From sequence record PZ513998.1: a DNA stretch of 56,697 nt; one strand, given 5' to 3'. Of the stretch, positions 1 to 20,565 are shown in pieces. This DNA comes from a phage. How positions within the stretch are numbered: the first letter of the stretch is position 1; each line of letters starts with the position of its first letter. The notes beneath the pieces are model-generated. The model made no database searches. It was not told where the DNA came from and saw nothing but the letters and a program-made list of their open reading frames with translations. The translations under genes were made by a program, and so were the position numbers.

Positions 1-180
1 ATGGTGATCAGGGAAAAGAAAAACTGGTATTATTGTTCATGCGGTAAGCCGTTTAGATCTGAGGCTCGCAGTAGTAACGGGCTAGTTTTGTTTCGATTAA
101 AGTGCGTATCCTGTGGGATATATTCACCGTGGCGCGGTTCAATTGGGCTATGTGTAGCGACGCTTGACAGCACCACGTAA
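1..180 (+). CDS. hypothetical small Cys-rich protein (zinc-ribbon-like CxCG ... CxxCG)
   Basis: 59-codon ATG..TAA ORF at window start, below the ORF-track size cutoff; translation MVIREKKNWYYCSCGKPF...KCVSCGIY; its first 7 nt ATGGTGA repeat the last 7 nt of ORF 181-546. Confidence 0.3.
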   Translation: MVIREKKNWYYCSCGKPFRSEARSSNGLVLFRLKCVSCGIYSPWRGSIGLCVATLDSTT

Positions 181-546
181 ATGGGTAACTCAGTAAATTG
201 TTTCAAATTTTATGAGGTTTGTAATGAGTTTCTAAATCTACCGGTAGTGGCTATCGGGAGGCCTAGCAACGATTTATCATTACCGGAATTTAATTACTCT
301 TATGGCGTGGTGTTCCATGTTAACAACAAGTTGCTTAGAGTCCTAACCGTCCGATATTCTTATGGACACCGGAGGGCATACGTTAGGATCGACGACGTAA
401 GAACGGATTACCCTAATGTCACTTATCCGGTTTACGAGCCGGTTCTTTTCTCGGGGGAGATCGCCGGCGAATGGATACGAGGCGCAAAAAATTTATACCG
501 GAGTTATAGGGACACGCTAACGAACGTAAGGGGGTCTGTATGGTGA
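181..546 (+). CDS. hypothetical protein
   Basis: 121-aa frame-1 ORF; no motif recognised; lies between the two halves of the portal gene if the window is circularised. Confidence 0.3.
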   Translation: MGNSVNCFKFYEVCNEFLNLPVVAIGRPSNDLSLPEFNYSYGVVFHVNNKLLRVLTVRYSYGHRRAYVRIDDVRTDYPNVTYPVYEPVLFSGEIAGEWIRGAKNLYRSYRDTLTNVRGSVW

Positions 547-1671
547 ATGAAATCAATCAAGGAACTTGTCGCGAGAAGTGCGAACAATCCCCCGGAGGTT
601 AAAGCACAAGGCGGTTATGAGGGTGCTCAGCGAAACTCGCGAGAAATGTATCGCTGGACGCCCGCAATAGTCTCTCCGGATCAGGAATTAGACGGCGGAC
701 AAAAAGAATTAGCCGATGCCCGGGTTCAAAACGTTATCCAGAATGACGGTTTTGCGTCCGGTGCCGTATCGATACATCGAGATAATATCGTCGGCTCTCA
801 ATACATGCTAAACGCTAAGCCGAATTTGTCCGCGCTAGGACTAAAAGGAGCTGACGCCGAAGCATGGGAGGAGGAGTTTCAAGACGTCGTAGAGTCGAAA
901 TTCAACGTGGCTGCGGACTCAACGGAAAACTGGTTTGATGTCACACGACGCAATTCTTTTACCGGCTTGGTTCGCCTCGCGGTGGCCCAAGCACTGATTT
1001 CCGGTGAAGTATTGGCATCGGCAGAATGGTCAAGAACCGCAGGTCGTCCTTTCAATACGGCCATTCAAATGATTAGCCCGCATCGACTGAGCAACCCGAA
1101 TAACTCGGCCAACACGAAAAACATTCGAGGCGGTGTTCATGTCGATGCGTTCGGACGACCAATCGGGTACTACATTCAAAACAGTTTCCCGGGAGAGAGT
1201 TTAATCAACGGTGAGAATCAAATGTGGCGATATGTTCCATCACGCAAACCGTGGGGACGTCGACAGGTTATTCACATCATGGAGCAAATTCTCCCGCACC
1301 AAAATCGCGGTATCTCAGACATGGTTGCAGCATTGAAGACCATTAGAATGACTAAGAACTTTCAGGAGATAACGCTACAAAACGCGGTAATCAATGCCTC
1401 GTATGCAGCCGCAATTGAGTCGGAGCTACCACCGGAAGCCGTTTACGCTCAGTTAGGTTTAGGGCAACGTCCGTTCGGCGAGATTATCCATGAGATGATG
1501 ACGAACGCAGCATCGTACTACGCGACTGCTAAAAACATGGAAATAGACGGCGCCAAGATCCCGCATTTAATGCCCGGCACTAAGTTGAACTTAAAACCGA
1601 TGGGGACTCCCGGCGGGATCGGCACGGACTTTGAGGAGTCGTTACTACGCCACATCGCAGCATCGTTATAA
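547..1671 (+). CDS. portal protein, lambda gpB family, N-terminal ~70% (ends at in-frame TAA)
   Basis: 374 aa colinear with lambda B from the N-terminus to the ...SLLRYIAAGL region (motifs MISPHRLSNPNN, NAVINASYAAAIESEL, AKIPHLMPG, SLLRHIAASL); homologs continue past this point; continuation found at 56182-56697. Confidence 0.8.
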   Translation: MKSIKELVARSANNPPEVKAQGGYEGAQRNSREMYRWTPAIVSPDQELDGGQKELADARVQNVIQNDGFASGAVSIHRDNIVGSQYMLNAKPNLSALGLKGADAEAWEEEFQDVVESKFNVAADSTENWFDVTRRNSFTGLVRLAVAQALISGEVLASAEWSRTAGRPFNTAIQMISPHRLSNPNNSANTKNIRGGVHVDAFGRPIGYYIQNSFPGESLINGENQMWRYVPSRKPWGRRQVIHIMEQILPHQNRGISDMVAALKTIRMTKNFQEITLQNAVINASYAAAIESELPPEAVYAQLGLGQRPFGEIIHEMMTNAASYYATAKNMEIDGAKIPHLMPGTKLNLKPMGTPGGIGTDFEESLLRHIAASL

Positions 1672-1947: not shown

Positions 1948-4014
1948 ATGGCTAAATACAAAAATCTCTTTGAGATCGCGGTCAAGATGTCGGATAACTT
2001 ACGACCCCCGGAAAGGTTGACCGTTTCTAATGCAGCATCTCAATATCGATATGTAAATTCTCCCGGGTCGTATGTAGGCCCGTGGTTGAATACAACAACG
2101 CCGTATATGGTCGAACCAATGGACGTATTAACTTCGCGCAATCACAGCAAGATGGCGTTTGTAGGCCCGGCACAGTCAGGTAAAACCGACGCGATTATCA
2201 TTAATGGCGTGTCATACTCAATCAAAGTCTCACCGATGGATACAATGGTATTCTGTCCGACAATGGCAGCCGCCCGAGACTTTTCTATGCGACGTATTGA
2301 TCGTCTTCACCGACACAGCCCGCTAATCGGCGAGCAATTGTTGAAAGGTAGAGACACCGACAATAAATTCGATAAACAATACATTACAGGTATGATGTTA
2401 ACTATCACATACCCTACCGTGACCGAATTGGCCGGACGACCGGTTCCAAGAATATTGATGACCGACTTTGACCGTATGGACGACGATATCGGCGGTGATG
2501 GTAATCCATTTGACTTGGCAACACAGCGTACAACAACCTTTGGTTCGTTTGCTATGACTATGGCCGAATCGTCCCCGTCGAGAGAGATTCTTGACCCGCA
2601 CTGGATAGCTAAGTCACCGCATGAGGCTCCGCCGTGTACCGGTATTATTGCGCTTTACAACCGTGGGGATAGACGACGTTGGCAATGGCCGTGTCCTCAC
2701 TGTGACGAATATTTCGAGGGTAAATTCGAGCATCTAACGTGGGACAACGGAAAACAGCTATCTAACCGAGAGAAAGCAGAAACCGTACAAATGGTATGCC
2801 CGGAATGTGGTTGTTTGATCCACCCCGACGAACGCTTTGAAATGAATTTATTCGGAGTGTGGGTTCCGGAGGGTTGTAAAGTTGATAAGAGCGGGAGACT
2901 TACGGGCAAAGCCCCTCATACCGACTTCATTTCTTACTGGCTCCGCGGTACGGCAGCCGCCTTTACGACATGGCAAAAACTGGTAAACATCTACCTCGAT
3001 GCCCTTGACGAATATCAACGGACGTACTCAGAAGAAGCCTTGAAGAAATTCTGGAATAACAACATGGGTGAGCCGTATCAGCCTAAGTCGTTAGAATCAG
3101 TCCGCGCACCGGAAGCACTGAAAAGCCGGTCATCAGATTACCCGCTAGGCATGGTTCCGAATGACGTTCGATTCCTCGTAGCAACGATAGACGTTCAATT
3201 GAATAGCTTCGTAGTACAGGTGTTCGGTATTTCCCCGGGTTCACCGTATGACACTCATGTTATAGACCGGTTCTTCATCAACAAGTCGGAGCGTAAGGAC
3301 GAAGACGGCGACGCAATGATCTTACAGCCGGCGACATACGAAGAAGACTGGAAACTTATCGAAAAACAGGTAATAGATAAAGAGTATCCGTTGTCAGACG
3401 GTAGCGGTAGAATGATGTCAATTAAGATGACCGGTTGTGACTCCGGGGGTAAATCTGGCGTAACCGGCATGGCATACGCGTTCTATCGATATTTGAAGAC
3501 AAAGAATAAACATGCTCGCTTCATCTTATTGAAAGGTGGCACACGAGTAACAGACCCGAGAACCCGTATTAGCTATCCGGACTCTAACCGGAAAAACGAT
3601 AAGAATGCAGCTAGAGGAGAAATCCCGGTATTATTCTTAAACTCGAACTTGTTGAAAGACGCATTAAACGGACGACTAGATTGTATTGAGCCTCACAAGG
3701 GCTATTATAATATGACTAGGGAATTACCGGACGAATTTTTCTCGGAGCTATGCGCCGAAACGAGAACCGCGAAAGGTTGGGAGAATTTAGCGCAAGCCCG
3801 AAACGAAGCATGGGACTTAAGCTACTACTGTTTGGGCCTTTGTACGTCTCCGGAGTTATTACGAGTAGAGTCGATAAATTGGGACAACCCCCCAACGTGG
3901 GCGGAGGAATGGGATAATAATACGATGGTCAGGGAACCCGAGGAAGAAAAACCATTCGCCTTTCAACCTCGACCGATGTTAGACTTTAGCCGTTTAGGTG
4001 AACTATTAGGATAG
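1948..4014 (+). CDS. terminase large subunit (GpA family)
   Basis: 688 aa; Walker A-like FVGPAQSGKTDA; Cys pairs CPHCDEYF...CPECGC typical of GpA zinc ribbon; adjacent to Nu1-like, gpW-like and portal genes; first 8 nt ATGGCTAA repeat 4592-4599. Confidence 0.8.
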   Translation: MAKYKNLFEIAVKMSDNLRPPERLTVSNAASQYRYVNSPGSYVGPWLNTTTPYMVEPMDVLTSRNHSKMAFVGPAQSGKTDAIIINGVSYSIKVSPMDTMVFCPTMAAARDFSMRRIDRLHRHSPLIGEQLLKGRDTDNKFDKQYITGMMLTITYPTVTELAGRPVPRILMTDFDRMDDDIGGDGNPFDLATQRTTTFGSFAMTMAESSPSREILDPHWIAKSPHEAPPCTGIIALYNRGDRRRWQWPCPHCDEYFEGKFEHLTWDNGKQLSNREKAETVQMVCPECGCLIHPDERFEMNLFGVWVPEGCKVDKSGRLTGKAPHTDFISYWLRGTAAAFTTWQKLVNIYLDALDEYQRTYSEEALKKFWNNNMGEPYQPKSLESVRAPEALKSRSSDYPLGMVPNDVRFLVATIDVQLNSFVVQVFGISPGSPYDTHVIDRFFINKSERKDEDGDAMILQPATYEEDWKLIEKQVIDKEYPLSDGSGRMMSIKMTGCDSGGKSGVTGMAYAFYRYLKTKNKHARFILLKGGTRVTDPRTRISYPDSNRKNDKNAARGEIPVLFLNSNLLKDALNGRLDCIEPHKGYYNMTRELPDEFFSELCAETRTAKGWENLAQARNEAWDLSYYCLGLCTSPELLRVESINWDNPPTWAEEWDNNTMVREPEEEKPFAFQPRPMLDFSRLGELLG

Positions 4015-4599
4015 ATGGCAAAGGCACCGGTAACAACAAGACGTCGTAGCAATCAGCTAGACCGTGAATCCGAGTCGATGATCTTCGACGGGGTTAACAT
4101 TACTCAGATCGCAAAGATATTTAACATGGAGCGTAGAGACGTTACGCCCAAGATCCGAGAAGTTCCTCCTTGCGGGGAACGAGGCGGGTATCCGATTTAC
4201 AAATTAAATGAAGTGGCGCCATACCTAGTAAAGCCCCTGTATGATGTCGAAACCTACATTAAGCGAATGCACCCCAACGAGCTTCCTAAAATGCTCTCTA
4301 AAGAGTTCTGGAACGGAATGAAAGCTAAGCAGGACTACGAGTTGAGAGAGGGTGAGCTATGGCCTACCGACCAAGTAGAAGCGCTAATGTCGGAGTCTTT
4401 TAAACACTTACGCATGTCATTACTCTTAGTAACGGACTCACTGGAACGTGAATCCACCCTCACCGATCATCAAAGAACCCGCATCACGGAAATGATAGAC
4501 GGCGCGCTAAATGAGATGGCGCAAACACTCGTTGAGGCATTCGGAGACCGGGCTAAGACGGAAGTCAAAGAGAGTACCGTAGGTGGCAAGAATGGCTAA
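4015..4599 (+). CDS. putative terminase small subunit (Nu1-like HTH protein)
   Basis: 194 aa; N-terminal HTH-like segment GVNITQIAKIFNMERRDVTPKI followed by GERGGYPIYKL, similar in layout to lambda Nu1; adjacent to large terminase. Confidence 0.45.
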   Translation: MAKAPVTTRRRSNQLDRESESMIFDGVNITQIAKIFNMERRDVTPKIREVPPCGERGGYPIYKLNEVAPYLVKPLYDVETYIKRMHPNELPKMLSKEFWNGMKAKQDYELREGELWPTDQVEALMSESFKHLRMSLLLVTDSLERESTLTDHQRTRITEMIDGALNEMAQTLVEAFGDRAKTEVKESTVGGKNG

Positions 4600-10863: not shown

Positions 10864-11199
10864 TTGACTGGATTGTCTCGTTTCGACACGGCCTATAATA
10901 CTCGTTATGAAATCCCTGTCAACACCTTTTTGACGAAATTTTTATATCGGGTATCCACCTCAATGTTAGGCCACCCGAAAAGTTTCATTGCCGGTAAGAT
11001 GTTTATCGCCTTTTAGGTGATACTTTTATCCTCTCAACTGATATCGCTCTCAGGTGGCCGTAGATTTAAGTCCGTTCACGTATTGACTTTCTGTTTTAAG
11101 TGGAATATCCCGCGCGTTGACTTATCTATAATTCTTGCGGTATTATCTGCGTCTACCCTCGGGTTAGATTTATCACAACTAAGGAGCAAGTATTTATGA

Positions 11200-11484
11200 A
11201 TGAAAGAGAGTAATTTCCCATCGTGGGCGAAGAACAATAAAACGGGTCGACTTAAATTCATGATCCGGCATTTAGCCAGTTTCGCTTCGGAGGAGGGCCA
11301 CCTAGTTTTCCTGTGCCGAGACGCTAAACTGTCGGTTCGTGGTGTCTCACAAGCAATCGACCGAGGAGAATTCACCTTTCAAATGGCGGATAAACTCGTT
11401 AAGGCTGCAAGCGTTGCTGGAAACCCGGACGTCACAGTTATGAACCTATTAAAACCTATGGAATCATTTAAAGAGGACAAATAA
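11200..11484 (+). CDS. hypothetical protein
   Basis: 94-aa ORF; AAGGAG 9-13 nt upstream (11182-11187). Confidence 0.3.
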   Translation: MKESNFPSWAKNNKTGRLKFMIRHLASFASEEGHLVFLCRDAKLSVRGVSQAIDRGEFTFQMADKLVKAASVAGNPDVTVMNLLKPMESFKEDK

Positions 11485-14160
11485 ATGTCTAACGTTTTCA
11501 AATCTCGTGGCCCTGAACTTTTCGACAATGGATACGAAGTCGTACCTATTACTCGTATCGACGCAACTGACAGCAAAGGGAAATTATTGTCTGGCGCGGG
11601 TAAAGCCCCGGCGTTAAAAGGGTGGCAGAAAATAGAGATCACTTCTGACATCGTTAATGAATGGGCGACGGGTAGTCGCTCTCGCTGTGGTGTGGGTATT
11701 CGTACCCACCGTAACCCTGCTGTCGATATCGACTGTTTAGACGCCGAAGCGTCAGAACACATGACGGCTTTCGTTGAGTCGGAAGTGGGCTTTGCTCCTA
11801 TCCGTGTTGGGCGTGAACCTAAAGCGCTACTCCTCTATTATACAGAACGTCCTTTCACAAAAGTAAAATCAACCATCTTCGTTGATGAAAACGGGAATGA
11901 AAACGCTGTCGAGATATTAGGAAGCGGGCAACAATTCGTTGCTTACGGTATCCACCCGGGAACTAAGAAACCGTATAAATGGGTTACTAAAGGCGAGTCG
12001 CCTGCGGAAAACCAAGCGGATTTTGACCTTGAAGAAATCACACTAGAAGACGCGAGAAAAATTATTGCGGAATTCGACCGGTATGCGAAAGAGCGCGGTT
12101 GGAAACCTTTAAAAAGTAAAAGCGGTACGGTCATCAAGCCATCTTTGGGCTACTACTTAGATGCTCCGGAAGAACTATCAGACTGGTCGGACGAGTCGGA
12201 CTTTGACGATGATGAAGACGATTGGGTCACTACTGATGATATCACCGATAAATGGGACGGTACTTACGAAGAACTTTACGAAATCTTCGAAAATGATATC
12301 GAACCATCTTACGATTACCACACTTGGATTCCTGTTCTGGCTGCACTTAAAGACGCCGAACGTGAGCCGGACGAGTTTAAAGAGATCGCGAGAATGTGGT
12401 CTGCTCGGGCCGAGGAGTCTTTCGATAACGATGCCTTTGAAGATAAATGGGAAAACGGTAATTTCAATCGTGTTGGTAAATACGCTAAGACATTACGAGG
12501 AGTAATTGCCGAAGCGGAAAAGATCCAAGGCGTTCGCGAAATTGAGGACGTAGTTATACCTTTATTCGAAAAAGCTACTGACTTGGCCGAGTGGACTTTA
12601 GCTGCCGACCGCCTACGTGAAACGTGGGCTTTCGGTTTAGAAAGAGAGACGGCCATAAACATTGCTTGCGAAAAGTATAAGAAAGTCACTAACGGGTTAA
12701 AACTTACGGACGTTCAAAAGAAACGATATCTTAGTATCGATTACTCTCTCTTTGACGCTCCCGAATGGTTGGCTCCTTGGGTTTATTGTACTACGGATAA
12801 CGAGTTTATTAACTTAGACAATAGAACCAGAATGAACCCTAAATCTTTCGCGAATGCCTATAACCGAGAAACTGTGAAGAAATTCGGGGTAGCTGCGGAC
12901 GTTTTCGCCACGGTTGAAAGACCCGTTCCTGTTATCCACGATACGATGTATTACCCGTTGATGCACGGTGAGATGCCTAAGAACAAATGGAAGCGGGTTC
13001 CGGGTATTAATGACAAGCGTGTTTTCGAATACAACGGTTTGACGTTCTTAAATACCTTTGACCATCGTTCCATGCCTGAGACCGCAACAAAAATTTCGAC
13101 CGCTGGATATAAGGCGATCGGGGAGGTAAAACGATACTTCGAAATACAGTATCCAGATCCAGACGAACGAAGACATGCGATGGACTGGATCGCGTGGGTT
13201 ATCAATAATCCTGTTAGAAAGATTAACTATATGCTTCTCGTTCTTGGTGGTCAGGGTTCCGGTAAAACCATCGTTAAGAAGTTTATGGAACACATGCTCG
13301 GCTCTGATAACGTCTCTACGATTTCGAATAAGGTTATCCATGGTAATTTTACCGGGTGGCAGTCTGGTCACATGCTCAAAGTTATTGAGGAAATATCGGT
13401 GAGTGGTCATCGCTACGACGTTATGAACTCATTGAAAGAGCCGATATCGAATGAAACGTTACAGATCGAAGCGAAGTACCGTGACCCACGCCAGTGTGTG
13501 AATACTTCGTCGTATATGGCATTTACCAATGATGTTGGTGCTTTGCCTCTTACATCAAGTGACCGTCGCTTCTTGTTAGTTCGTAGTGCGTTCCAGCACA
13601 AGCGTGAAGTCACTGAATACCTACGGAAAGACCCTAATTACTTTAAACGGTTTGAGAAAGCCTTTACTAAACACGCACCGGAGATCCGCAAATGGTTTAG
13701 CGAGTGGGAGTATTCCGAGGGCTTCAAACACGATGGTAACGCTCCTGAAACGGTGAGTATGGGAAGCATGTCTTTAGCGTCAGAAGACGATTTCACCTCC
13801 GTAGTAATGGGGGCCGTAGATGATTGTGAGAAAGAGTTAGAATTTACATCGGGGATCACAGACGAAGTAATTTTCATTCCATCGGCAGTAGATTTAGTCC
13901 GAGATAGGTCTAAGGTTCCTAACGGGAAAATAATATATCGCATACTCGCTGAATATGGTTTCTTCCGGCCTGTGGATTCTCGTACACAAATAAGATTTAA
14001 TGACGTAAGAGGACAAGTTGTTGTCGCGAATAGACATAAATGGCTCTATCCTGATGGGAGTGTCAACGTAGATAAGATTAAAGAGCATTTAGAGGAGAAC
14101 GAACGCCGGGTAGAAGAACAAGAAAGCAAGAGAGAGTTAGAAGAAACTGACGTTTTCTAA
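11485..14160 (+). CDS. DNA primase-polymerase (prim-pol) fused to D5/P-loop helicase
   Basis: 891 aa; N-terminal prim-pol-like segment (GKAPALKGW, VGIRTHRNPAVDIDCLD, EILGSGQQFVAYGIHP); C-terminal Walker A LVLGGQGSGKT. Confidence 0.75.
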   Translation: MSNVFKSRGPELFDNGYEVVPITRIDATDSKGKLLSGAGKAPALKGWQKIEITSDIVNEWATGSRSRCGVGIRTHRNPAVDIDCLDAEASEHMTAFVESEVGFAPIRVGREPKALLLYYTERPFTKVKSTIFVDENGNENAVEILGSGQQFVAYGIHPGTKKPYKWVTKGESPAENQADFDLEEITLEDARKIIAEFDRYAKERGWKPLKSKSGTVIKPSLGYYLDAPEELSDWSDESDFDDDEDDWVTTDDITDKWDGTYEELYEIFENDIEPSYDYHTWIPVLAALKDAEREPDEFKEIARMWSARAEESFDNDAFEDKWENGNFNRVGKYAKTLRGVIAEAEKIQGVREIEDVVIPLFEKATDLAEWTLAADRLRETWAFGLERETAINIACEKYKKVTNGLKLTDVQKKRYLSIDYSLFDAPEWLAPWVYCTTDNEFINLDNRTRMNPKSFANAYNRETVKKFGVAADVFATVERPVPVIHDTMYYPLMHGEMPKNKWKRVPGINDKRVFEYNGLTFLNTFDHRSMPETATKISTAGYKAIGEVKRYFEIQYPDPDERRHAMDWIAWVINNPVRKINYMLLVLGGQGSGKTIVKKFMEHMLGSDNVSTISNKVIHGNFTGWQSGHMLKVIEEISVSGHRYDVMNSLKEPISNETLQIEAKYRDPRQCVNTSSYMAFTNDVGALPLTSSDRRFLLVRSAFQHKREVTEYLRKDPNYFKRFEKAFTKHAPEIRKWFSEWEYSEGFKHDGNAPETVSMGSMSLASEDDFTSVVMGAVDDCEKELEFTSGITDEVIFIPSAVDLVRDRSKVPNGKIIYRILAEYGFFRPVDSRTQIRFNDVRGQVVVANRHKWLYPDGSVNVDKIKEHLEENERRVEEQESKRELEETDVF

Positions 14161-14294
14161 ATGTTGTACAAAAATCACCCAACACACATGATCGAATTAC
14201 CTTTATATAGCTTATATATATATTTTTCTATTTTTCCTTTCCTATCTATTTTTTCTTTCTTCTGGAATTTCTATTTTATTATCTATTACTGTGT

Positions 14295-14350
14295 TTGCTG
14301 TGTCAGAAAGAAAGTAATATAGTTGCTGTGTCAGAAAGAAAGTAATATAG
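14295..14350. repeat. tandem direct repeat, 2 x 28 bp (TTGCTGTGTCAGAAAGAAAGTAATATAG)
   Basis: two perfect adjacent copies at 14295-14322 and 14323-14350, inside an AT-rich stretch. Confidence 0.9.
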
Positions 14351-15090
14351 TAAAAACAATAACTTACCTTGGAACACCTATTGGAACATCAGCCGGCACA
14401 GCAATTTCCTGTGACACACCACCAGCCATGGTAATACCTAAAACGGCGCATAACTATTTGATATTATTACGGAATTACCTAAAATACCGGTCATTACGGT
14501 AAATGATGTCCCCTATTGCTAAAGCCTGTGCGTCGCTCTCCGTGCTTTCTAGAGAAGAATCACTTTTAAATCGAAAAAGGTACTTGGACGAGTTGTCCGG
14601 TTGGGCGGGGGTGCGCAGAGCCGTCTTCCAGAAATTTGTCCGGGATCTGCCATAGATGTTTGGGTGTTCGGGTGGGCGGTGTTGTGGGTTAGATGTGCTT
14701 CAAATTGTAAGCGTGTGCGATTGTGCGAGGCGATCGCGGTGTTAGTTGTCGGTCGTATCCGTTGAGCGGGGGTATAGCGCCTCGGGTGAACACGCCGATC
14801 GGGAACGTCGTTTTTACGTTTTGTGCGGGTGTTCGGGTGTGCGGTTGTACCGCATGACGTTTTTACAAATATAAATGCGGTCGCGCCAGCGCCTACCCAC
14901 CCAACACCACCACCCCAAGCCCTCACTCTCCCCCATTCCCCCCCACCCTATGGAAAATTGCCGTAAAGCCATGTGTTGCGTCCTCAGCGTGTTTTGCCCG
15001 CTAGGTAAGGCCGATGTATTACCTACGATGAGTTATGCCCGTGTGGTTCGATTGAGGGCGGAAGACGGCGCTTTGTTTGTTCCGACTTAA

Positions 15091-15330
15091 ATGAGCATTC
15101 TCAAGATGCTACTCTCCGGTGTGTACAACGTGGGCGCCGTGTGTTTCTTCGGCCTAATTTCGATTTATATTCTCTCGTTCTTTTTCCGCGCCCTACAAAA
15201 CCACGGTTTCGACGGTCTACACCGCACTACGTTAGTTCTCGAATCAATCGGCGCTATCATGATGGTCGTCTTCATGGTTTGCGTTGCGATCTTGGTGTTC
15301 GCCGGAGGCGTCGCCCTAACAATCCGGTAG
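15091..15330 (+). CDS. hypothetical small membrane protein (2 predicted TM helices)
   Basis: 79 aa; hydrophobic stretches GAVCFFGLISIYILSFFF and IGAIMMVVFMVCVAILVFAGGVAL. Confidence 0.3.
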   Translation: MSILKMLLSGVYNVGAVCFFGLISIYILSFFFRALQNHGFDGLHRTTLVLESIGAIMMVVFMVCVAILVFAGGVALTIR

Positions 15331-15909
15331 ATGAGTTGTAACTGTTTCGATCGTATTCAAAAATCGATGGCTGATCGGGTGGCCGGTAAGTTGCCGAACG
15401 GCGCAATAATACACTCGGCGGAGTGGAAAACAGAAGTGTTAGCTATTGAAAATAAAAAGTTGAAAACCCGATATTTTCTAGACTTCACCATAGAGTATCA
15501 AGAGCGTAGACCGGACGGGACGCTCTACTCGACGGTAACAAAATCTGATTTTCCTGTGTTTATGAATTATTGCCCGTTCTGTGGCGTAAAGTTCGAGGAG
15601 GACGAACAAACTCAGGATCAGGAAGACCGTTTTAAATTCCCTGCGCTAGTCTACGTCAAAAATGGAAAAGACCCCATCGCACACACGGGGGCAACGTTAC
15701 AACGAAGTGGGACAGAACACCCTCGCGGAATGTTTGCGGAGTACGTGAACGTGCGAACCAATGAGCGGATTTACTTTTCTGAGTCGTTGATGTCCTCCCG
15801 CCTAGACGGTGGCGATTACGTCGAGATCCCCGACGACTGGGAACAACTCAGCGACTATTGCCAGAAAGACATAATCGCAGAACGAAAAGCACGAGGCGGT
15901 CGAAAATGA
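15331..15909 (+). CDS. hypothetical protein with Cys pairs (CNCF ... CPFCG)
   Basis: 192-aa ORF; possible zinc ribbon; no family recognised. Confidence 0.3.
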   Translation: MSCNCFDRIQKSMADRVAGKLPNGAIIHSAEWKTEVLAIENKKLKTRYFLDFTIEYQERRPDGTLYSTVTKSDFPVFMNYCPFCGVKFEEDEQTQDQEDRFKFPALVYVKNGKDPIAHTGATLQRSGTEHPRGMFAEYVNVRTNERIYFSESLMSSRLDGGDYVEIPDDWEQLSDYCQKDIIAERKARGGRK

Positions 15910-19425: not shown

Positions 19426-19995
19426 ATGGCAGAATTAGCATACACTAAAGCGTCTATCTTCCAATCTATCGTTGATGATGTTAGTACGGGTCTACCTAAA
19501 GGAACTTCATTAGATACCCGCGGAGATTTCGAAAATCAATTACGCGACCTTTTCGAAGAAAATAATCTTATGAATGCGCCGGAATGTATCAGCGTCGACT
19601 ACTTCGGGGAAGCATGGGAGATCGTCCAGTCTAGCGAGTTTGATTCTGTTGAGCTAGAAACGCCTTTAGATTTCAGCGGGTGCAAAAGTTCATTAAAATG
19701 TTTGATGATGGAAGCTAACGCATTAATAAGCGCGTCTTGGCGTGAACAAGTGGAAGCCTACATCGAAGAACTGGCCGAAGCACTGGAAGAAGTTGTCGAG
19801 GGTTGCGAGGAGTTCGGAACAATCGACGAACTGGTAATCACTGGCGGGTGCCGTTTCGGTCACATTCCACACCTAAGAGAGTTCGATGCTGGCGACTTTT
19901 CTGTGTGCATGTGGGCGCCGAACGAAGCCGGAGAGTCTGAAATTTATTATAATTTCCGAGGTCTGGAACTGCGCGGGGTTGTATATCATGGGTAA
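19426..19995 (+). CDS. hypothetical acidic protein
   Basis: 189-aa ORF. Confidence 0.3.
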   Translation: MAELAYTKASIFQSIVDDVSTGLPKGTSLDTRGDFENQLRDLFEENNLMNAPECISVDYFGEAWEIVQSSEFDSVELETPLDFSGCKSSLKCLMMEANALISASWREQVEAYIEELAEALEEVVEGCEEFGTIDELVITGGCRFGHIPHLREFDAGDFSVCMWAPNEAGESEIYYNFRGLELRGVVYHG

Positions 19996-20373
19996 GTGGA
20001 CGGTGTGACATACTTTTCATCAGTTCCTAAAGATACCAATTCACGCCGGGCGAGATCCCGGCTTTCTTCGTTCTTGAGTCCGCACGAAAAAGAGTTACAA
20101 CTATCTACGCACGACATACAGACTATTTTAAACCTAGCTAATGCGTTTTACTTCCGAGCTGATCCGGAGAGTAAACCGGCTTACTCAGACAACAAAACTA
20201 TTGTAAGCCTTCGCATATCCGGAATAGTCGAAGATGATCGGGGCTGGCTCATTATCCGCCGGCATTTCCTTAATTCTGGTCAGTGCTGGAAGACGTTGCA
20301 CTTAGAGGTTATTTTTACCCACATAGAAAATCTGACCTTATGTGAGTGTAAAATTCCCTATTTCCCCGATTGA
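19996..20373 (+). CDS. hypothetical protein
   Basis: 125-aa ORF, GTG start. Confidence 0.25.
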   Translation: MDGVTYFSSVPKDTNSRRARSRLSSFLSPHEKELQLSTHDIQTILNLANAFYFRADPESKPAYSDNKTIVSLRISGIVEDDRGWLIIRRHFLNSGQCWKTLHLEVIFTHIENLTLCECKIPYFPD

Positions 20374-20565
20374 ATGATGAAGAATAAAATCACATTAAAC
20401 AGCGGTATGATTTTAATCGCTGACGACGAAAAAGTTACGGTAAACGCAGACGGTTCGCTATTCTGTCCGGCGTGGGATATGCGCTTTATGTTAACTCGTA
20501 ACATTTCATATAATCGAACGGTTACACATCGAGAGGTGAAAAGTTTTGAGCGATTATACAGTTGA
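20374..20565 (+). CDS. hypothetical protein
   Basis: 63-aa ORF. Confidence 0.2.
   Translation: MMKNKITLNSGMILIADDEKVTVNADGSLFCPAWDMRFMLTRNISYNRTVTHREVKSFERLYS

Follow-up and report, generated by a model that had tools for sequence, protein, structure and literature searches.

What occupies the DNA behind the primase gene of this phage, where nearly a kilobase seems to hold no gene at all? The window analysed here, meaning the whole 56,697-nucleotide stretch of record PZ513998.1, raises the question at positions 14161-15090, for which an earlier note, made from the letters alone, had proposed a replication origin or a packaging or regulatory region. We conclude, with a probability of roughly 90%, that this region is a distorted view of the lambda-type cos region of Escherichia phage E21, a non-coding interval between two converging operons, and that the "genes" and the tandem repeat seen in it are artefactual.

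The distortion comes from the way the window is built. It is not contiguous DNA: it consists of 85 predicted E21 ORFs joined in one reading frame. By megablast the window corresponds to E21 (MN604053 / NC_052983; 58,536 bp; Casjensviridae, Lavrentievavirus; deposited as a circular record with no cos feature and no termini data) at 99.9% identity, but as many separate pieces. Read in frame 1, its whole length is tiled by 85 consecutive head-to-tail ORFs with zero leftover bases. The ORFs near the region under study abut exactly, each stop codon being followed immediately by a start codon, and every tile starts with ATG, GTG or TTG, the sole exception being the last one, which starts with AAC. 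Exact full-length matches to MN604053 were found for 84 of the 85 tiles, and the other one matches along 1,122 of its 1,125 nt. The tiles keep the order of the E21 genome, each written in its own coding orientation, with intergenic DNA omitted and overlaps duplicated. As the GenBank annotation of E21 lists 64 CDS, against 85 tiles in the window, the tiles come from a more permissive gene caller.

Locating the region in the parent genome, a check that the earlier note had itself recommended, places it at E21 13751-15160, where neither GenBank nor RefSeq annotates anything. The true interval behind the primase gene is therefore 1,410 nt long, not about 0.9 kb as had been stated: window 14161-15090 is made of six short ORF calls taken out of it, and 508 nt are absent, in gaps of 327, 73, 20, 14 and 74 nt. 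Four of the six tiles (window 14503-15090) are individually reverse-complemented, yet listed in ascending genome order. The components of the interval and its immediate neighbours are, in E21 order and with strands referring to the genome:

Window 11485-14160, E21 11075-13750, plus strand: primase-helicase gene, 891 aa, Prim-Pol / PriCT_2 / DUF5906; its end at window 14160 maps exactly to E21 13750.
E21 13751-14077: gap, 327 nt absent from the window.
E21 about 13772-13800, plus strand: primase-side terminator hairpin, within the 327 nt absent from the window.
Window 14161-14322, E21 14078-14239, plus strand: tile 1, a 53-aa ORF call, mapping exactly.
Window 14295-14350: artefactual 2 x 28-nt duplication, both copies being E21 14212-14239, the overlap of tiles 1 and 2.
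Window 14323-14502, E21 14212-14391, plus strand: tile 2, a 59-aa TTG ORF with a 28-nt overlap with tile 1.
E21 14392-14464: gap, 73 nt absent from the window.
Window 14503-14655, E21 14465-14617, minus strand: tile 3, a 50-aa ORF call.
Window 14656-14745, E21 14618-14707, minus strand: tile 4, a 29-aa ORF.
E21 14708-14727: gap, 20 nt absent from the window.
Window 14746-14874, E21 14728-14856, minus strand: tile 5, a 42-aa TTG ORF.
E21 14857-14870: gap, 14 nt absent from the window.
Window 14875-15090, E21 14871-15086, minus strand: tile 6, a 71-aa ORF.
E21 15087-15160: gap, 74 nt absent from the window.
E21 15138-15113, minus strand: terminator of the other operon, within a window gap.
Window 15091-15330, E21 15161-15400, minus strand: first credible gene beyond cos, converging on cos.

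In a window concatenated in this manner, tandem repeats at tile junctions, spacings measured across tiles and composition patterns of minus-strand tiles are all suspect, and intergenic signals, such as terminators and part of the cos core, drop out. The perfect 2 x 28-bp tandem repeat that the earlier note had reported illustrates the first point: it is an artefact of overlapping ORF calls written consecutively, and the genome holds one copy only. The two copies (window 14295-14322 and 14323-14350) meet exactly at the tile junction 14322/14323 and correspond to the 28 nt shared by two ORF calls that lie in different frames (E21 14078-14239 and 14212-14391). The 28-mer is present in single copy in the E21 genome as well as in nine of nine aligned relatives, and no period-28 array was found in E21 by TRF. 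The same process operates along the entire window, where every overlap between plus-strand tiles gives rise to a junction duplicate of equal length (4, 7, 8, 14, 28 and 38 nt), and where all three perfect tandem duplications of at least 12 nt at tile junctions are overlap duplicates.

The six tiles themselves are spurious over-calls by a gene finder tiling non-coding DNA. We aligned E21 with nine Lavrentievavirus genomes and counted variable columns by codon position, the expectation from real genes being that variation concentrates at third positions. Counts at positions 1/2/3 were as follows:

Primase 3' end, coding control: 0/0/10.
Gene at E21 15161-15400, coding control, intact in all relatives: 12/0/23.
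Tile 1: 3/2/1; ATG changed to ATA in 8 of 10 genomes, frameshifted in P2-71.
Tile 2: 14/9/8; in-frame stops in pPM_01 and Isf-Pm1.
Tile 3: 6/6/7; open in genus relatives, Isf-Pm1 being without the segment.
Tile 4: 3/6/5; stops acquired in relatives.
Tile 5: 4/12/4; stops acquired in relatives.
Tile 6: 7/18/11; frameshifted in nine of nine relatives via indels in a variable G run.

Third-position bias is absent from all six tiles, five of which are broken in close relatives by start loss, stops or frameshifts, and Pfam and PHROG searches on the six returned no family match. These results make it highly improbable that any of the tiles is a genuine small gene. It is true that none of the six is interrupted in E21, that a gene finder called them all, that tile 3 is open in every genus relative retaining the segment, and that small "hypothetical proteins" are annotated here in some deposited records. 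However, these annotations are without coding support, and the small ORFs that depositors of genus relatives have placed in the interval are mutually inconsistent in position and strand. Tile 3, for its part, runs across the cos cleavage site, and the cos-spanning ORFs of other genera differ from it in start, length or frame. A further candidate, a 74-aa minus-strand ORF at E21 13880-14104 (RefSeq, ASh-2020a), was rejected as a gene: its substitutions are mostly non-synonymous, it carries a frameshift in SD-12 and a premature stop in pPM_01, and it does not resemble the ORF that Kokobel1 has in a similar place. The earlier note had seen no convincing gene after the primase and had warned that the ORFs, on either strand, might be spurious; mapping and coding tests agree with it on both counts.

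What remains is a 1,410-nt interval between the primase-helicase operon, on the plus strand, and a series of small minus-strand genes, so that transcription converges on it from both sides, each operon being closed by its own intrinsic terminator. Could such an interval be a structured non-coding RNA, or mainly a promoter or regulatory region? Its untranslated length would allow this, and E21 has two 17-nt GTACAAAWTTTATACAG boxes and a partial third, operator-like elements that resemble the ATAACAAATTTGTTATA palindromes upstream of gp1, an HTH protein gene of Chi. We nevertheless consider this reading unlikely. Both flanking operons point inward and terminate, and tblastn detects no homologue of Chi gp1 in E21. 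There is no Rfam match at E<=1 in E21 13600-15300 and no tRNA or tmRNA; the folding energies of the two arms (z = -0.74 and -1.87) are not distinct from those of shuffles. A sigma-70 scan yields 3 sites against 2.6 expected from shuffles, and the best two are altered in relatives.

A more specific identity is given by a 12-mer, 5'-GGTGCGCAGAGC, that lies inside the region and that the earlier note had overlooked. It occupies window 14610-14621 (E21 14510-14499, minus strand of the genome), would constitute cosN with a 12-base 5' overhang, and is unique, with one exact match in the window, one in the E21 genome and none at one mismatch. Primer extension on the ends of phage Chi identified a 12-base single-stranded 5' extension of precisely this sequence (Hendrix et al. 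2015, PMC4342425). The termini of Siskin were checked by Sanger sequencing, and the overhang predicted for it is made of the same 12 bases (PMC6498227). The ends of Jing313, predicted with PhageTerm, again correspond to this 12-mer, which is present in six of the six Proteus and Klebsiella Chi-like phages announced (PMC9022528). A cos site of this kind is hence already known from Chi and from Proteus Chi-like phages, and database records converge on the same place. The linear record of Proteus phage DanisaurMW starts with GTGGCGCAGAGC and ends with ...GGTGCGCAGAGC / ...GGGGGTGCGCAGAGC, homologous to E21 14499-14510, and the records of Jing313 (about 95% identical to E21 over the cos interval), Inception, DoubleBarrel, NotEvenPhaged, Saba and Phraden start or stop at E21 14499 or 14510. 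The packaging role suggested in the earlier note is strongly supported by these coincidences.

The 12-mer is embedded in a conserved core. Only E21 14449-14546 of the interval, about 100 bp around the 12-mer, matches phages outside the genus. The portion of the core inside the window spans positions 14574-14655 (E21 14546-14465) of tile 3, which thereby carries most of the core, and the rest, E21 14458-14464, falls in a window gap. Its elements are AAAAGGTAC upstream of the 12-mer, CGGGGG directly before it and CCATAGCC after it; in an alignment of E21, DanisaurMW, Chi, Saba and Kokobel1, which represents four genera, GGGGCTAT, CGGCTCTGCGCACCCCCG and GTACCTTTT are invariant. Map position is conserved as well, with the primase gene at E21 11075-13750, cos at 14499 and the gene for the small terminase subunit (TerS) at 3475-4059, a layout shared by Chi, Saba and Kokobel1. 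The large subunit (TerL) has GpA_ATPase (8e-67) and GpA_nuclease (4e-55) domains, and the packaging and head genes of E21 also encode a lambda-family portal, an S49 protease, an E-type capsid protein and a DUF1441 TerS, the latter 57% identical between E21 and Chi and 99-100% identical within the genus.

By analogy with its sister phages and with lambda, we infer that E21 itself is cleaved at GGTGCGCAGAGC. Its lambda-type terminase, made of a gpA-family large and a DUF1441 small subunit, would recognise the conserved core of roughly 90 bp and nick concatemers or circles 12 bp apart at the 12-mer, generating 12-base 5' cohesive ends. E21 14510 down to 13751 would then be the left virion end and 15160 down to 14511 the right end, giving the virion untranslated ends of about 750 nt on the primase side and 650 nt on the other side. 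After injection, annealing of the ends would re-form the interval. The previously unannotated cos site of E21 is now placed, and the "circular" record should open at 14499/14510.

The core accounts for just some 100 of 1,410 nt, and a minimal cos leaves the composition of the flanks unexplained, an observation that counts against cos as the explanation for the interval in full. This composition is extreme. Four genome-wide records for 100-nt segments are held here: the lowest GC (starting at E21 14106), the pyrimidine maximum (14114), the C+A maximum (14621) and the G+T maximum (14989). The AT-rich polypyrimidine stretch that had been noticed at window 14200-14290 (20% GC, 77% pyrimidine) is real and represents the extreme of the genome in both GC and pyrimidine content; as a 100-nt block it spans window 14189-14288 (E21 14106-14205, plus strand, GC 0.20), within tile 1, at a distance of about 290-390 bp from cosN towards the primase. 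The G/T-rich and C/A-rich blocks of the earlier note are equally genuine, and extreme in the genome: window 14656-14874 is 69% G+T, and window 14880-14950 is 80% C+A. Their order is not, however, that of the genome, since the minus-strand tiles were flipped singly. The same flipping affects the recurring 13-mer GGGTGTTCGGGTG, whose copies seem to be 165 nt apart in the window instead of 74. Both copies exist and are the only two in the genome; the first had been given its right position (window 14662-14674, in tile 4), whereas the second had been placed one position off and lies at window 14827-14839, in tile 5. On the genome the complement, CACCCGAACACCC, is found at E21 14689 and 14763, with a true spacing of 74 nt, and both copies sit in short 8-nt-periodic arrays, that of tile 4 being CA-rich on the genome plus strand. 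The CA-rich part of tile 6 (window 14880-14950) is the complement of a G-rich tract of the genome plus strand and includes a G-quadruplex-type motif at window 14913-14948.

Several short repeats accompany these blocks. Three TGTACAAA-type boxes are found at E21 13855, 13975 and 14082, the last being the TGTACAAA box at window 14165-14172, in tile 1. A 21-nt repeat, AAAAACGACGyTCCCGATCGG, occurs once per arm, at window 14795-14815 (tile 5) and at E21 13807, which is absent from the window. Of the seven copies of the motif YTCCCGATC in E21, four fall inside this interval, which makes up 2.4% of the genome; the arms of Saba and Kokobel1 contain the motif too. Among genus members, arm variability is similar to that of third codon positions nearby: 3.5-8% in the left arm and 14-20% in the right arm, and 6% and 19-26% at third positions in the genes next to them. 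Within the interval, variability peaks (28%) at E21 14341-14448, a stretch that adjoins the core and is reached by the 3' half of tile 2.

We compared the flanks of cos in the complete genomes of E21, Saba, Kokobel1 and Chi and in Chi-like IMG/VR contigs found via the cos 16-mer, after discarding 6 of 15 matches as high-GC chance matches without Chi-like context. At the sequence level the flanks are unalignable: no more than a few per cent of 11-mers are common to the compared lineages. Their architecture shows common features. Nine Chi-like lineages have an AT-rich window whose start lies at -371 to -410 from cosN, towards the primase, and Saba has a comparable window near -388, the joint-lowest in GC of that arm. 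Genome-wide, this window ranks first for low GC in E21 and Chi, second in Kokobel1 and fourth in Saba. In E21, Saba and Kokobel1, the genome-wide maximum of C+A starts at +125 to +172 from cosN, and the strongest CA skew falls 110-215 bp to the side away from the primase; with the exception of Chi, every compared contig has a CA-rich block beginning at +106 to +214. In addition, lineage-specific 6-mers are enriched around the AT-rich block in Chi, Saba and the contig lineages L026, L029, L033, L035 and L036 (<=0.3% of 300 shuffles). Examples are GTTACA in Chi, GTGACA in L026 and CTTGTA in L033, each present eight times; in Chi the eight copies fall within 340 bp, a count reached by 0 of 300 shuffles. 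Against shuffles, E21 (P=0.19) and Kokobel1 (P=0.11) show no significant enrichment.

Any role of the flanks is one that we infer from such regularities. Tentatively, and with the odds against it, they may form an undescribed bipartite element common to Casjensviridae, either a cos-coupled origin or a very extended terminase-assembly site. Judged on sequence features, they would fit an origin beside the Prim-Pol/helicase gene as well as an extended assembly site, and the computed data do not separate the two.

Under the first option, the primase-side arm would be a replication origin, possibly besides serving cos: the AT-rich block would unwind, and the boxes would bind an initiator, either the Prim-Pol/helicase or a small regulator. 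In favour of this option, the genome reaches its GC minimum just behind the Prim-Pol/PriCT_2/DUF5906 gene, three TGTACAAA-type boxes are present, and in Chi and six further lineages enriched 6-mers flank the AT-rich block. We still regard it as doubtful. The earlier note had proposed looking for DnaA boxes and iterons and analysing GC skew: in E21 13751-15160 there is no DnaA box, whether sought as TTATCCACA with at most one mismatch or as TTWTNCACA; the 6-mers of E21, like those of Kokobel1, are not enriched over shuffles; and cumulative GC skew is uninformative as to an origin, as it tracks the direction of transcription. The fixed distance of the AT-rich block from cosN (about -370 to -410) suits a cos-linked role at least equally, and a literature search on a Chi-like phage origin or on the genome ends of E21 returned nothing relevant, including no paper on a Chi-like origin. 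The origin of phage P4 uses TGTTCACC iterons. This lead was rejected for E21, where a single exact TGTTCACC occurs near 14810 with no array and where the enzyme is a Prim-Pol, not of the P4 alpha type.

Under the second option, the flanks would be an extended packaging signal containing equivalents of cosB and cosQ, with the AT-rich block acting as a bend or IHF-type site and the boxes binding the small terminase subunit, which would position the large subunit on cosN. A lambda-type terminase, the constant distance of the AT-rich and CA-rich blocks from cosN in most lineages compared, and the recurrence of YTCCCGATC in the arms of three genomes, with its concentration here in E21, all point in this direction. 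Set against these, the elements lie 300-700 bp from cosN, whereas cosB of lambda lies within about 170 bp of it, and E21 has no repeated sites within that distance. TerS retains 57% identity between E21 and Chi, yet the repeated motifs differ completely; likewise, nowhere in the interval is variation higher than in the core-adjacent E21 14341-14448, though TerS is nearly invariant within the genus. We lend this option limited credence. The conserved architecture of the flanks provides a small testable lead to the sites of replication initiation or terminase assembly in Chi-like phages.

The cos region of E21, as we read it, can be compared with three kinds of known systems. With the iteron-containing, AT-rich origins of plasmids and phages it shares an extreme AT-rich block beside a replication-initiator-like gene. 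Short repeated boxes, another trait of such origins, are strong in the flanks of Chi, L026, L033/L035 and L036, but E21 differs in that its iteron enrichment is not significant and DnaA boxes are missing.

Lambda resembles it in packaging machinery. A gpA-family large terminase, a lambda-family portal, an S49 protease and an E-type capsid protein are common to lambda and E21. The cohesive ends of lambda are 12 bases long, and 5' cohesive ends of 12 bases are found in both lambda and Chi, having been shown experimentally in the latter. By contrast, the cosN of E21 has no sequence similarity to that of lambda, and its small terminase subunit is of the DUF1441 type instead of Nu1. The terminase genes of E21 are remote from cos (about 10 kb), unlike the lambda arrangement, where cosQ-cosN-cosB is cut by gpNu1/gpA. 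Nor does E21 have a counterpart of cosB in the form of repeated sites close to cosN, the stretch adjoining the core being instead the one that varies most.

The nearest relatives are the cos sites of Chi and Chi-like phages (PMC4342425, PMC9022528). Chi has the HTH gene gp1 between cos and primase, which E21 is without, and the flanks of the two phages are unalignable outside about 100 bp. The ends of Chi have been determined, whereas the E21 record is circular and carries no cos feature. The sites have several features in common: the 12-mer is identical and its flanking blocks are conserved; cos lies at the same place on the map, between the primase gene and the right-end small genes and over 10 kb from the terminase genes; and in both cases it is bordered on each side by several hundred nucleotides of non-coding DNA.

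The whole window (w1-56697, w denoting window coordinates) consists of 85 ORF calls, or tiles, from Escherichia phage E21 (MN604053), joined in one frame, each in coding orientation and in genome order. About 1.8 kb of intergenic E21 DNA is missing, and overlaps between ORFs are written twice, as at two junctions:

w22887: junction duplicate, 14 nt
w29931: junction duplicate, 38 nt

A further perfect tandem duplication of 14 nt, at w51573, lies away from any tile junction and is for that reason possibly genuine. Tiles 1 and 2 (w1-546, E21 19875-20413) break genome order with respect to all remaining tiles. The arbitrary origin of the E21 record also cuts the portal gene in two, leaving its parts at opposite ends of the window:

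w547-1671: tile 3, E21 1122..1, followed by a TAA at w1669-1671 that is not present at the corresponding point of the E21 genome
w56182-56697: last tile, E21 58536..58021, first codon AAC, 3' part of the portal gene

Between the primase gene and cosN, the inferred cohesive-end site at E21 14499-14510, one ORF occupies the position held in phage Chi by the HTH gene gp1:

E21 13880-14104: minus strand, 74-aa ORF, mostly outside the window; a CDS in RefSeq for ASh-2020a

No similarity between this ORF and gp1 was found. Non-synonymous changes make up the majority of its substitutions, and the frame is broken in SD-12 by a frameshift and in pPM_01 by a premature stop.

On the far side of cosN, a run of seven G residues (E21 15018-15024, w~14937-14943) sits in a G-quadruplex-type motif and differs in length in every aligned relative, by -10 to +4 nt; the spurious 71-aa tile T6 is frameshifted as a result. 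The length change could reflect slippage or sequencing error. A 16-nt patch (E21 14886-14901, w~15060-15075) exists in one version in E21 and DanisaurMW and in another in the other eight genomes, the E21 version forming a 13-nt inverted repeat with sequence adjoining cosN (14491-14503 / 14889-14901).

Host labels in this group look doubtful in at least some records. By their deposited names, Pseudomonas phage E21, Staphylococcus phage SVV09-A and Enterococcus phage AS-M1_NWU are 92-95% identical to these Proteus phages, as are Salmonella phages SD-11 to SD-14, and the host listed for Escherichia phage E21 is enterotoxigenic E. coli.

Across the cos site itself, some 180 bp aligned to E21 14410-14586 are absent from Isf-Pm1 (L012, OL741431). 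The first Chi record, JX094499, is reported to have been artificially joined without 171 bp at its ends (PMC4342425), and both losses probably arose in the same way, through misassembly where cohesive ends meet. At the ends of Chi, the left arm (L013 1-613) carries about eight GTTACA/TTGTAAC boxes surrounding an AT-rich block, together with two 17-bp palindromes, ATAACAAATTTGTTATA, upstream of gp1, and the right arm (L014 2600-2860) carries GATATACGCGGCGTGCGT as four direct repeats spaced by ~60-80 bp.
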